NCBI GenBank assembly: GCA_963729045.1
Contig: CAVSMN010000015.1
Coordinates: forward strand, 139,474-203,473
Direction: 5' to 3'
Origin: an uncultured Nitrososphaeraceae archaeon
GTDB taxonomy: Archaea > Thermoproteota > Nitrososphaeria > Nitrososphaerales > Nitrososphaeraceae
DNA length: 64,000 nucleotides
Of this stretch, positions 33,001-42,000 are shown piece by piece. A program made the position numbers. Position 1 is the stretch's first letter, and the number at the start of each line of letters is the position of its first letter.

Positions 33001-36000
33001 GCTGCAGGAAGAGGATTATTCATTGGACCACGAATCGAGGGATTAAATGTAGGAATTGATGATGCAGCAAGAGCATCTAACGCGATAAAACAAGCGTTAG
33101 AAAAAAATAATCTTGATATTACATCAAACTATTTGGGTGAGCTTTATTCACAGTCTGTCCAACAAAGTCCTTATACAAGGGATATGGAAAGGATAGACAA
33201 GTATTATATCAAAACAATAATCGATGCTGCAGGCAAGCAAATTCCACCCCAACAGATAGGCAAGTATGGATTTCTTTTTAAGTTGTTTCTAAATGATAAA
33301 TTAAGAAACGTGTCTATTGACATTGTTAACAAAATAGGGTACAATAATATGTTATCACTAATAGAATCAAAAGAGACATACATAAATACTCCAATAAATC
33401 TCGCAGAAAAACTCGGTACCAAAACCATCTCTGAATATTCAATATCTATTCCAGAATTATCTCAACGGATATCGAGTTTAAGTTACAATGATGATCCACA
33501 AAGTCATATCAAAATAACAAACTCAAAAAGCGAATTTATGAAAAAAATGGTTACACTTTGTCCAACTAAATGCTACAGTCTTGAAGGAGAGGATGTAGTT
33601 TTGCAACATGAGGGTTGCATAGAATGTGGGACATGTTCCCCAGAAACAGAATGGAGACATCCAAGAGGTGAAAAAGGAATACAATACAAGTATGGATAAA
33701 TTCATCTCTCGGCCCTATTACGCCTTAAACTAATTTCATCTTCTGACCTGGTATATTTTATTTTACTTTGTTAAAACTCTAATTCCACTATTAAAGAAGG
33801 ATAACATTTATCTATTTTCCTATGTTTTTTTAGCTTTGTAAATAAGATAGTTATTATAGTAACTTTGAAATGATTTGACCGTTAAGGAATTAATCAACAA
33901 AGAGAATCGAGCATGGGGGTTAACAATAAAAGAAAAGCTATTTTTTGCTAGGAAAAATCAGCTCTATCATGTGTAATATTTTAAGACATTTTTTGACTTA
34001 TTATTTAACAAATGATAAATAAATCTGTTAGCTATATATCAATTGTAAACAAAAATTGCAGACAAGTTTATCTTTTTTAATGTTGTCATATATCAATGCA
34101 AGTAGAAAAAACCTTTAAAAATTCTGAAATGGATGTGATAAATGAATTAAAAAGATCTGGGATAAAATGGGTACGACTAAATTTTTGCGACCCTTTTGGA
34201 TTTCTTCATCAAATATCTGTAAACAGCACTGAAATTACAGAGGATGCATTTAAGCAGGGATTGCCTAGACTGGATGGTAGTTCCATAAAAGGATTCAAAG
34301 AGATATATGAATCAGACATGCTACTCAAACCAGACCCTTCCACTTTTGCAATCTTGCCAGAATATTTTGACAAGAATAATCATAACAGGAGAAATTATGC
34401 CTACCCTTCCATGGCTGCGCGTATGTTTGTTGATATTTATGACGGATATGGAGGGAGAAGGTATTCCAGAGATTGCAGATATATAGCACAAAAAGCAGAA
34501 GAATTCTTAAAGAACAAAGGTTTTGAGAAAAGTTATTGGGGACCTGAATTAGAATTTTTTGTATTCAATAAAATATCACTTCTTCCAAGTCCTATGTCTT
34601 CGGTAAATTGTTCTGGTGGATCAGGATATTCAATAGAGTCTGGAGAAGCACCATGGAATTCTTCAGGTGGTAATGATTATACGATCCCATTTAAAGGAGG
34701 ATATTTTCCCGCACCTCCAGCCGACAGTTTAACAGATTTAAGAGACGAAGTATCAGAAACACTGCAAGAATTTTTTGGAATACAAGTTGATGCACATCAT
34801 CATGAGGTTGCAACAGCCGGACAGTGTGAAATTCAAATGGTGTATGACGATCTTACTAGAATGGCGGATAAAGTTGTTACCTATAAGAAGACCGTAAAAG
34901 AAGTCGCTGCTAAACGTGAAATGATTGCAAACTTTATGCCCAAACCAGTTGCCCTTGACAATGGTTCAGGTATGCACGTAAGCCAGAGTTTATGGACAAA
35001 AAAGAAATACGGGCATGACGCAAACATGTTCTTTGATGTTTCCGACGATTACGCAGAACTAAGTCAAACAGCACATTACTATATTGGAGGCATAATAGAT
35101 CACGCTAGAGCACTATGTGCTTTAACAAATCCAACTACTAACTCATATCGAAGATTAGTCCCCGGCTTTGAGGCTCCAATTAACGTGGCGTGGAGTAAAA
35201 TGAATAGGTCAGCTAGCATCAGAATACCGTCTCATTATAAAAATATGGAGAAGCAAAAAAGAATAGAATATAGGACACCTGATCCGAGTTCAAACATTTA
35301 TCTTGTGGAGTCGGCTTTATTACTAGCAGGACTTGACGGAATCAACAAAAAAATATCTCCTCCAGACCACGTGGATAAAGATATCTACAAACTCACAGAG
35401 CAAGAAAAGAGAGAATATGGGATTAGAAAATTGCCTACCTCTTTGTTAGAAGCTATCGAGTCACTAGAATCTGATGCTGATTTTTTGAATCCTGTATTTG
35501 CAGCCGACTTTATTGAGATGTATTGTCAGATTAAAAAGGATGAGCATGCAGCAGTAGCCGCAATACCTTCGCCTAGAGAATTCTATATGTAAGAGAATTC
35601 TATATGAGGAATGTTTAGGTAATATATGTCGTATCCTAAAGATATATTAGAAATCAAAAGAAATCTTCTAAAAGAGGTTTCTTCTACCTCCGTTGTTGCC
35701 AAGAATGATAATTTAAATTTCTTATATTACGATCAATCAAAAATTATTCTAGATGCAAGAAAAGCATTTGACGGTCTTATTCCTTATTCAGGGCTAGGCG
35801 CTAATTCCACAAATGATTATTTTTCTTCCATCGATCTCATTGGTGGATCTATTAAAACAGACGTTGATTATAGTAATGTCGATCTATCCTTAACTATTGG
35901 AGGCCTTTATTCAAACAGAAAAATAACCACGGATATTCCGTTTTTTGTCTCTGGTATGAGCTATGGGTCATTAAAACTTCCTGCAAAAATAGCATTGCAC

Positions 36001-39000: not shown

Positions 39001-42000
39001 AGATTTGGAACAAGAAAGGGTATTGTGGGGTATAATCCTGGGTCAGATGGGATTCCTGCATTTTGGGCAATGGCGACGGATCTATCTGCATTGGATATCA
39101 TCGGAGCGAATAAAGACGTGAAAGCAGCGTCACCAGGTAAGTCGCTGATTTTTGCCATAGAATAAATAAATTAATAAGGCATGAATCAACGACCAAAGAT
39201 TAATGTGTTACATGTTAGATATAGATGAACTTGGGTTAATAGTAAAAGAAATAGGTTCAAAAATATCTAATCCGGATACGCAATTTGAAAGGGTTAACAC
39301 TATATTTGAGCAACATTATGGGATAAAACTCCCAGATGGTATAAAACGTGCATCGATTGAAAAATTTGGAGATATTGTAAGCTCCCCACTGATAATGGAA
39401 CGAGCAATAAATTTAATCATAAGTAAAAAGGTGATCGAGGGCGAAACTAAGATCATAATAAAAAACCCACGGTCCCTATACAGAATAGGAATACTCAGTT
39501 TTGACAAGACAATAAAACTCGATCTAGTGGTAGATGGTAACGTAGGTAATTTTTTTGGAGCATTTTGCAATTTTGATGGCACATGGACAGTAAAAGGGAA
39601 CAGCGAGAATGGGTTGGCAGATAAAGGTTATAAGGGCAAAATAATTGTAGAGGGCTTTGCCACGGAATTGGCATGTCAAAATAATCAAGCAACTGAATTT
39701 AGTACCGGTGTGGACGTCTTGATCAAAAAAGGATGTATGGAAAGGGCGATGGGACAGGCAAGGGGTGGAAGACTGGTAACTTTTGGCGCAGGATATAATT
39801 CGGGGTTGTATATGTCAGGTGGTATATTGCTTAATTTGGGATTGCCAGGTGAATTATTTGGTCCAGGGATGGTTGGAGGCGTAATTTATTCTCCCAAACG
39901 GAACTACTGCAGCCGAAGGTGCACAAATTGATAGATTGTCAGTAGAAGATTACTCAATAATAAGAGAAACACTGCTGGTATTTGAAAAAGAACTGTGTAT
40001 TGAACAATTAAATGATTTTTCAATAGAAAACCCCATAATATCCCTAACGAATAAATCAATGGATGATAATCAAAAATACGATATGCGTGACTTTATCAAA
40101 ATAGTGCCTGATTTAAGATCACAATAACCTGAAATCTTCTTTCGCAGTAATTAAGACAATGTGGGTATTGGTTCTATCGATATATGGAAGTGATAAATCA
40201 TGCTTGACAAAATCACTTAACTCCGAACGATTCTTAAACTTTGCAATGATTATTAAATCAGTCAAGCCTGTAATATCATAAACTGCACAAACATTAGAAA
40301 ATTTTGAAATATGTCTTTGTACCTCAATTATTTTATTCTTAATGGCAGTAACTTCAATTACTGCTGTCAAATCAAACCCAATTTTTGCATAATCTACCAT
40401 TGCCGAATATGATTTTATTACCTCATCTCTTTCGAGTCTTGATATTCGATTAAGTACGGTAGGTGGAGAAATTCCCAATTCAAACGCTATTTTTCTATAC
40501 GAACTCCTAGCATCTGTTAGCAGTCTTCTTAATATTTTTGAATCTATTTCATCCATTGATAATTTCTCTATTATTGACTTTATAAATATAAAATGAATTT
40601 AACTTATTTTTGATAGATTTAAAATAGTATTGTCATAATACTTTTATTGTAAAAGATTTTCTAGCCTAATATTTTAGATTCTAAAAAGGTGGGCATGTAT
40701 GTCCAGTTCAATTATGCTTATTTTCCTATCCAGAAAATAAATTATAGATTGTCTTTCTTTTATCTTTAAAGGCTAAATATTAGTTTAAAATTTATACGAC
40801 TCGTGATTAATAGGGCATTTTCTACTCTAGTAATTTATTGGAATAATCAACAAAGTATTAGATAAAAGCTTGATAACAAAGTTACTTTGAAATTTAGAAA
40901 TTATTTAACTAACTAATAGCATCTATAAATTATTTCTGCAGTCATAAATAGAATTGTCTACTGACTATGATGATCAATATTGGGAATAATTTTAATTCTA
41001 GTTCAAATAATTGTTATGTCTTTTGCTATTTGTACAATTATAAATAATAATGCTTTTAGCTTTTCCATTCCTGAGGAGATGGATTATTCCGTTCCATTTG
41101 ATTTTCTTTCCTCTGCCGAGGGTGATAGTTTAGCCCCTAATTCCCTCAATGATGATAATAGTACTAGTCCAAAAATGGATGATGCAAATTTTGCAGGCAG
41201 AGTCGACTCTGATATTTTTCTTGAACGTGAGAACGAGCATCTTAAAAACAATGATCATATTGACTACAAGTATGATAAAGATTTGAAGATTGATAATGTT
41301 ATGAGCAAGTTGATTGAACCTGAATCAAATAATGCTAAAAATGAATCAAATTCACAATTAGATTTCTACAAAAATAAGTATCAGGAAAAAAATGATGAAT
41401 TCAAAAGTGAAAACATAAAAAAAAATTCTAACATACCAATTAGTGATGGAAAAATTGCAGTAATCAATTTCGATGATAGCTGGAAAAGCCAATATGAAAA
41501 TGCAAAAGCTATACTTGATGAATATCAGTTCAAGTCTACGTTTTATGTTGTATGTGATTACATAGATGGAAAAAATAGATTGACTTGGAAGCAAGTACAA
41601 ACTTTACAAGAAGAAGGAAACGAGATAGGTTCTCACAGTATGAATCATGTAAATTTAGACCAAATAACACGGGATTCTAAATATAATGAAATCGTTGAGT
41701 CAAAGAAATGCCTTGAAGATAGAGGACTTAATATTAACAGTTTTTCGTATCCTTTCAATTCAGGTGATGATGACCAGGAATCTTTGGACTTGGTATCAAA
41801 TACTTATGATTTTGCTAGGACTGCAGGTGGCGATAGTCACACAGGTAGCGACCGTGTTGGAAGTCTTAAGGGCTATGAAAAATATACCATCGTGGGTTGG
41901 AGCCATGACGCCGAAAGAAATGAGAATAATTATTCTGATTTACAAATGCTAGATGCGTTCAAAGCATATGTAAATCAATATAGTGAAAAAAGTCACAGTG

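Follow-up and report, generated by a model that had tools for sequence, protein, structure and literature searches.

The window analysed, a stretch of 64,000 nucleotides from an uncultured Nitrososphaeraceae archaeon, carries a glnA-gltB2-X-gltB1-gltB3 operon, in which X denotes the gene g02511 (Table 1). Gene order and strands were checked and are real, as the survey's finding had described them. The glutamine synthetase reaches only 217 bits with the type III model, below its cut-off of 470. g02510 has no N-terminal ferredoxin, GltB1 carries the N-terminal Cys, and a search for a GltD domain found none. Single-base frameshifts near 38210 in X and near 39893 in gltB3 are absent from independent contigs; the former removes approximately 15 C-terminal residues of X, whose open frame within the window is 37077-38222, and the open frame of gltB3 ends at 39931 in this assembly. 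The final codons of glnA also deviate from independent contigs, with letters inserted at 35606-35607 in three of four runs. Contigs assembled from RNA runs span X in both metatranscriptomes (2/2), although such contigs cannot show transcription. Upstream sigma-70 scans, whose reach does not extend to archaeal promoters, gave chance-level results.

Table 1. Features of the operon and its convergent neighbour; positions count from the first nucleotide of the window.
Feature	Position	Strand	Evidence
glnA, type I glutamine synthetase	34096..35592	+	TIGR00653 516 bits, cut-off 429
gltB2 (g02510), catalytic FMN/3Fe-4S synthase barrel	35626..37092	+	PF01645 E 5.5e-82
GltB2 52-residue catalytic loop	36262..36417	+	alignment motif table
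GltB2 3Fe-4S motif CX5CX4C	36790..36825	+	sequence, motif table
X (g02511), dead GltB2 paralogue	37098..38268	+	relatives' start is the ATG at 37098
X arm motif GAQLSRPPYDPYRE	37257..37298	+	aligned to central-domain and ordinary catalytic GltB2 motifs
gltB1, class II glutamine amidotransferase	38287..39165	+	GATase_6 E 3.4e-17
gltB3, GXGXG beta-helix	39203..40127	+	PF01493 E 1.7e-12
Lrp/AsnC regulator, convergent	40119..40556	-	family matches

X is a conserved, catalytically dead GltB2 relative that travels with the operon. In the alignment it lacks the GQGAK loop, the GGTGA loop and the Cys cluster, all of which are present in g02510, and its counterpart of the GltB2 catalytic loop is 8-9 residues long. 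The survey had likewise placed CX5CX4C in g02510 and not in X, and this was confirmed. The reverse is true of the AQxxxPPxDxxRE arm motif, which X has and g02510 has lost (motif table). This motif is the most invariant stretch across the X family, and motifs on the C-terminal face are conserved as well. The survey took the motif as the mark of the central domain of bacterial GltB. It is indeed present in X, but ordinary catalytic GltB2 of archaea and clostridia carry the arm motif, the FMN motifs and the Fe-S motifs within one chain. The motif is therefore ancestral, and its presence does not identify a central domain. The motif residues Thr507/Asn508, set against Ser976/Ile977/Glu978, presumably form the tunnel gate; their residue numbering was confirmed.

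By whole-barrel homology and tree position, X belongs to the archaeal GltB2 barrel family (PF01645, arCOG00619), although the catalytic motifs are absent. Its nearest relatives in both score and tree are stand-alone archaeal GltB2 proteins (Ferroglobus, Methanothermobacter, Pacearchaeota), which share its arm motif and C-terminal signature and differ in being catalytic, the motif and the active site lying on the same polypeptide; in the 4 wide loci checked they had no dead partner beside them. The X profile averages 112 bits against Pacearchaeota-type GltB2, 65 against its own partner, 62 against SRP-type, 34 against both TNP-type and Y (a second dead barrel, described below), and 8 against central domains, and hhalign aligns X with Pacearchaeota-type GltB2 at E 2e-23 over 309 columns. 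In the tree, X, its partner and the Pacearchaeota-type proteins nest together with support of 100/99, and the SRP/TNP split has 100/97. The grouping of X holds at 99 in four further trees and in another from which central domains were omitted, with every dead barrel sitting on a long branch. X is not resolved as the direct sister of its own partner (AU test of X with partner, p 0.38), and a 5-residue insert common to the two aligns in one alignment and not in a second.

We consider it likely that X is a dead GltB2 copy which arose by duplication within its partner's lineage and acts as the partner arm in a four-subunit GOGAT. Unduplicated GltB2 combines a motif-bearing N-terminal arm with the FMN, 2-oxoglutarate and 3Fe-4S machinery in a single chain; after duplication the machinery remained in g02510 and the motif in X, each of the two having lost the other part. 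Most probably X and g02510 form a pseudo-symmetric pair in which the arm of X, laid on the catalytic barrel, closes the tunnel that brings ammonia from GltB1, a task that falls to the central domain in bacterial GltB. X is thus likely to play the central domain's part. The resulting enzyme would be fed by the adjacent glutamine synthetase and, because a GltD domain was not found, would take its electrons from ferredoxin or a different free carrier.

It is unlikely, though the best placed of the alternatives, that X is a separate dead duplicate with a regulatory or docking role (effector sensor, ferredoxin dock or assembly factor) and is dispensable for the tunnel. Such a role would suit its complete barrel, the conservation of motifs on the C-terminal face and its rate of evolution, about twice that of gltB2, and a preprint indicates that the central domain of B. 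subtilis also docks another enzyme, GudB (bioRxiv 10.1101/2021.04.12.439528). Against it stand the invariance of an arm motif that the partner has lost and the fact that, in the genomes examined, every intact gltB2 of this type is accompanied by X.

The survey's own reading, that X is a free-standing central domain, would make it that domain's orthologue, one that already had its own gene before the domains fused and has retained it. This we regard as improbable and largely refuted, although several observations speak for it beyond the shared motif. An hhalign comparison of X with the central domain gives a probability of 92% and E 6e-7, and the weak Pfam matches reported earlier were confirmed, with 6 of 21 X members matching Glu_syn_central (best 6.4e-4) and 17 of 21 matching Glu_synthase, both counted at E<=0.1. 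X does not reach the PF04898 cut-off of 22.8 bits, and its genome has no match, whereas 122 of 401 genomes of the phylum and 14/14 controls do. Catalytic GltB2 also match the central domain better, the central-domain profile averaging 48 bits against TNP-type, 35 against Y and 9 against X. X and the bacterial central domains form one clade in no unconstrained tree; forcing them together was rejected in one AU test (p 0.023) but not with a second alignment and a mixture model (p 0.119), and a forced group of X, central domain and Y was rejected in two tests (p 0.001 and 0.0003).

The architecture of X also argues against orthology. A one-residue insert in the beta-7 loop is found in 11/11 central domains and 17/19 Y sequences but in none of 17 X-family rows, and the GSMG/Met479 segment, present in 11/11 central domains, is likewise missing from all 17; it stays with the dead copy in the central domain and Y, and with the catalytic partner in the X operon. 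The bacterial central domain lacks three beta/alpha units (PMC5011417), whereas the predicted model of X, a flavin-family barrel with pLDDT 82.4 (82 in the survey), has all eight strands. The reported match of this model to GltS 6S6S exists (Z 19.8, rmsd 3.6, 307 aligned, rank 12), and the N-terminus does fall on residue 481, but the match runs to residue 1189 and ends inside the FMN domain. Among the Foldseek matches listed for X are alpha-hydroxy-acid oxidases and IPP isomerase but not GltS, a result that does not exclude GltS. The N-terminal 117 aa, said to have Synechocystis Fd-GltS as top PDB match, gave no match at E<=10 with either start codon, and the X family profile reaches Synechocystis GltS 485-547 at E 0.051, on row 22 of 46, beneath IMP dehydrogenases. 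The analysis supports X as the fourth gene of a GOGAT, lacking catalytic function and homologous to each of the GltB barrels; it is probably not a bacterial central domain that became free-standing. The likeness of X to the FMN domain reflects its own duplication and therefore has no direct bearing on the bacterial one, for which the survey had invoked it.

It is very improbable that the operon encodes an N-methylglutamate synthase or some other enzyme of amine transfer whose specificity is set by X: MgsC-like proteins do fall, like X, on the SRP side of the tree and occur in similar operons linked to glutamine synthetase, but both marks of MgsABC, a neighbouring type III synthetase and a Cys-less synthase subunit, are lacking here, the synthetase being type I and g02510 having the Cys motif that two MgsC-like proteins lack, and GltB1 has its N-terminal Cys.

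Duplication of GltB2 within its own lineage, our preferred account of X, may have parallels. Like X, the bacterial central domain (PF04898; Azospirillum 423-780) is a dead barrel with the catalytic loop and Cys motif deleted and the arm motif kept, and its catalytic partner has lost that motif; unlike X, it belongs to the TNP GltB2 lineage, is fused and retains GSMG/Met479. Other archaea of the phylum have Y, which is closer to the central domain and is either stand-alone (325-373 aa) or fused in a two-barrel GltB (688-779 aa), which we take to be the Sulfolobus GltB type. Two-barrel GltB repeats the X operon order of motif-less catalytic barrel, motif-bearing dead barrel and amidotransferase gene, but Y is of the TNP lineage and retains SMG and the beta-7 insert. 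Against B. subtilis GltA, Y gives E 3.6e-6 with its best stretch within the central domain. Its hhalign score with X, 141, about equals that of X with SRP-type (139), and a forced X+Y group was rejected (p 0.002). A model of a natural two-barrel chain matches GltS only through its catalytic half (8-400 on 781-1189, Z 30.5, rmsd 3.4), and this fold comparison does not reveal where the dead half lies. Since support for central domain plus Y dropped to 47 in one tree, and the catalytic partner of Y was placed apart from the FMN domains of bacteria, a duplication shared by Y and bacteria is not shown.

The bacterial central domain and Y would derive from the other GltB2 lineage, and the inactive copy in the X operon and the bacterial inactive domain seem to have independent origins. 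The solution of an inactive second barrel thus appears to have evolved more than once. We give about an even chance to the fuller proposal that a GltB2 homomer became a catalytic and dead pair at least twice, perhaps three times (X, Y and the bacterial central domain), with the arm always passing to the dead copy and other features divided differently, and that stand-alone Y, not X, are free sisters of the central domain, keeping the full barrel of which that domain subsequently lost part. A search of the openly accessible literature found no description of such repeated origin.

The earlier statement that no description existed was wrong. The four AOA subunits are already known from Ca. Nitrosocosmicus arcticus, which has the same four genes (NARC_80135-80138), the second being listed as a glutamate synthase small domain protein of arCOG00619; the available passages of that paper state no role, catalytic-motif loss or origin for it (Alves 2019, PMC6657660). 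In the comparison with this system, the representative P0023 shares 83% identity with X. A 2016 SCOP review already states that the central domain originated by duplication (PMC5011417); a 2021 review leaves duplication or independent origin undecided (PMC8097209).

We propose from these sequence comparisons that soil AOA with X, some AOA only, assimilate ammonia with an enzyme in which the catalytic subunit is joined by a second, inactive copy of itself. Such a system offers a natural case of repeated change from homomer to heteromer via a dead paralogue. GltB2 chains with both central motif and active site, together with dead copies at differing stages, make the history of the central domain testable with small separate proteins, in a series of homomer, free heterodimer and fusion. 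In practice, reconstruction of the AOA enzyme or GOGAT annotation in AOA requires four genes, and an archaeal Pfam match to Glu_syn_central is no proof of a central domain.

Separate genes for all four GltB domains, which the survey ascribed to AOA GOGAT as such, are not general in AOA; X occurs in 33 of 201 family genomes searched, and the reported 15 of 34 genus genomes was confirmed, the own genome counted. gltB2 and X co-occur in 32 of the 36 genomes having either, and all four exceptions lie at contig ends. A dN/dS of 0.12-0.23 was counted in favour of X as a dead GltB2 copy. A second copy of the operon in one genome (G302) lacks gltB2, and X there is a remnant with stops. No fused form of X appeared among 7998 candidates of 759-2165 aa, which is weak evidence, with chains of 668-758 aa outside the scan. 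The count of 35 representatives holds at E<=0.001, but 22 of them are under 160 aa and one, P0138, is a catalytic GltB2. The Lrp regulator, described as kept with the operon, carries a tag in 15 of 29 related loci and may stand on either side. There is little to suggest that the upstream ETF/Fix cluster serves GOGAT specifically, as 185/201 family genomes have fixCX. In a metagenome scan aimed at the four distant relatives of X, all 18 among the matches listed were AOA-type loci.

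X (g02511), a catalytically dead GltB2-like barrel, is a real fourth subunit gene of the glutamate synthase (GOGAT) of some ammonia-oxidizing archaea (AOA), as the survey's finding held. At the 29 named genome loci with X, the gene directly upstream is in every case gltB2, whole or as a fragment, gltB1 and gltB3 are found downstream in 26 and 23, glnA is present at 26 (divergent in the five Nitrosopumilus-like loci showing it), and 15 loci were tagged for an Lrp pattern; most gaps in these counts arise because contigs are short. Named relatives are Ca. Nitrosocosmicus and Nitrososphaeraceae. 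Across 201 family genomes, partner-type gltB2 occurs in 35, X in 33 and both in 32, and in the four genomes with only one of the two the matches sit at contig ends. Purifying selection acts on X, its dN/dS being 0.12-0.23 (7 pairs) versus 0.09-0.12 for gltB2. One genome has a second operon copy (L022, G302:C6:198705-202016), in which glnA and gltB1 are intact, gltB2 is absent and four stops interrupt what remains of X. A distant X clade (P0128, P0130, P0132, P0137; 24-30% identity) is sister to AOA X in the tree. The genome also holds two more glnA paralogues (G000:C9:158666-159988 and C14:35524-36880; 48% and 40-47% identity).

Genes of the GOGAT locus and examples of the stand-alone barrel Y
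Feature	Position	Strand	Context
glnA	34096-35592	+	first of five co-directional genes
gltB2 (g02510)	35626-37092	+	after glnA
X (g02511)	from 37098	+	after gltB2
gltB1	38287-39165	+	after X
gltB3	from 39203	+	last of five
Lrp gene			after gltB3, convergent to the five-gene run
Y examples	L061-L072, e.g. L061:3405-4400, G575:C8		after motif-less catalytic gltB2

Single bases of the window are absent from independent contigs near 38210 (one of four runs) and near 39893 (two of four), reflecting small assembly errors or strain differences; with one base fewer at each, X and GltB3 would receive the C-termini of their relatives. Apparent frameshifts occur at 27751-28125 (ferritin), 30497-31832 (etfA), 35575-35610 (glnA end), 38210 (X) and 39893 (gltB3). 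Independent contigs read differently at the last three, and the frameshifts across the window suggest indel errors of the assembly.

The further claim that X is the bacterial GltB central domain itself (PF04898, Glu_syn_central), standing free, probably does not hold, as X groups with its own GltB2 lineage. With X as query, a class search matched catalytic GltB2 chains exactly at the arm motif AQxxxPPxDxxRE, and two catalytic lineages combine motif and active site in one chain: the TNP type, which shares QVTNPP and a HHDIYSIE loop with bacterial GltB, and the SRP type (QxSRPP with HxDIxGPE). The SRP motif is found in X and the SRP loop in its partner, g02510. The motif is thereby marked as ancestral. 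Glu_syn_central matched 122 of 401 phylum genomes (97 above the cut-off) and all 14 control genomes, including M. jannaschii and T. maritima, with no match in the genome studied here. The reported similarity of the X N-terminus to the Synechocystis central domain was not reproduced, and a catalytic TNP protein, queried with 120 of its residues, does equally well, having that domain as top match (E 0.25).

For comparison, 127 barrel sequences were taken from fetched loci and proteins and sorted into 11 groups. The X profile scored 112 bits against Pacearchaeota-type catalytic GltB2, 65 against its own partner, 62 against other SRP proteins, 34 against TNP and 8 against central domains; the central-domain profile scored 48 against TNP and 9 against X. 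Subsets of 71 or 44 of these rows, chosen for spread, went into the trees, which are unrooted and have the dead barrels as long branches. In the mixture-model tree, one side of a branch (100/99) unites X with its partner and with the Pacearchaeota type, and the SRP/TNP split is supported at 100/97; the same group received 99 in four further trees, and 99 with central domains left out. Forcing X with the central domains gave p 0.023 (LG+G) or 0.119 (second alignment, mixture model), and forcing all dead barrels together gave 0.001 and 0.0003 in two runs. An extra beta-7 loop residue, present in 11/11 central domains and 0/17 X-family rows, agrees with the trees in setting X apart, as does the GSMG segment, which central domains keep and which in the X system the catalytic partner keeps instead; Met479 in this segment is tied to electron transfer in PMC8097209. 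A 5-residue insert after helix 1 occurs in 11/11 partners, 2/2 Pacearchaeota-type proteins and no other catalytic group; X has it in one alignment and lacks it in the other.

The predicted structure of X (pLDDT 82.4, pTM 0.84) has eight barrel strands, whereas loss of three beta/alpha units is described for the bacterial central domain (PMC5011417). Its match to 6S6S (Z 19.8, rmsd 3.6, 307 aligned) spans residues 481 to 1189, given as end points only. With one superposed barrel and an alignment that stops at 1189, we infer that the modeled barrel would fall within the FMN domain and its N-terminal arm among residues of the central domain, a pattern expected from a copy of an arm-plus-barrel ancestor.

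The idea of a free-standing central domain is more closely matched by Y, a second type of dead barrel from other archaea of the phylum. Among 20 regions fetched from Glu_syn_central matches and chosen by frame length, so that counts are not frequencies, 12 (three families) carry a catalytic barrel lacking the motif and, after it, a stand-alone Y of 325-373 aa, five have both barrels fused, two hold ordinary GltB2 and one is empty. Y retains SMG and the beta-7 insert (17/19), and one Y protein matches B. subtilis GltA at E 3.6e-6, the best stretch being in the central domain. Y joins the central domains with support of 98/87, 84-92 (three trees) and 47 (one tree), and on these comparisons is nearer to them than X. 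As Atlas leads only, the fused form is labeled with the Pfam central domain, and further unnamed clusters of 319-384 aa occur in bacteria.

X probably works like the central domain without descending from it. The partner keeps the 52-residue catalytic loop, GGTGA loop and Cys cluster and has lost the motif; X keeps the motif and has lost all three. X would bind GltB2 and supply the arm. According to PMC8097209, the ammonia tunnel of GltB is lined by synthase and central domains. The Azospirillum sequence has Thr507, Asn508, Ser976, Ile977 and Glu978 at those numbers. Thr507/Asn508 of the motif, together with the other three, we take to be the tunnel gate. No dead partner for motif-bearing GltB2 was found in four wide loci. 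Electrons likely arrive via a free carrier, since the genome (87% complete) shows no GltD N-terminal domain and the partner has no ferredoxin extension. Just upstream of glnA (29608-33699) lies an ETF/FixABCX-like cluster (etfB, etfA in two frames, a fixC-fixX fusion of 626 aa), also inside the fetched flanks of nine related loci. In its genus, 17/17 gltB2-positive genomes have the cluster, and the 10 genomes without it also lack gltB2; fixCX is near-universal in the family (185/201, a tally including G365, G777, G832, G788 and G825, flagged unpublished and probably also in the other 201-genome denominators). The cluster is possibly an electron source for GOGAT, or the association may be mere linkage.

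X had been taken as undescribed, but in Alves 2019 (PMC6657660) four GOGAT subunits are named, the second filed in arCOG00619. The restricted range of GOGAT is stated again in a 2023 review (PMC10432482), and Abby 2020 (bioRxiv 10.1101/2020.06.28.176255) infers GOGAT loss in the AOA ancestor, which would fit a re-acquisition, with a lineage close to the Pacearchaeota-type proteins as the possible source. The available parts of PMC3584215, PMC3831235, PMC5775586, PMC12097351, PMC13759103, PMC3448663 and bioRxiv 10.1101/2021.04.12.439528 do not describe X. The literature searched yielded no paper that treats X as a dead paralogue, describes stand-alone Y genes or proposes repeated duplication, though older GltS-evolution reviews may cover the two-barrel archaeal form. 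What is new is the proposed repeated origin, together with Y as a family.

Other GltB-type arrangements were also seen. GXGXG-ferredoxin-GltB2 triple fusions of 711-742 aa (L015, L016, L018, L019, L079, L080; class and phylum) show another GltB domain order, and in a marine-type AOA genome (G064, L165:283-1884), outside any GOGAT operon, a glutamate-synthase-like FMN barrel carries a fused Rieske-like domain. The FMN domain of GltB variants of 1850 aa (L112, L114) is enlarged by a long insert, and in Tsukamurella the gene that follows codes for a sulfite reductase alpha subunit, in place of gltD.
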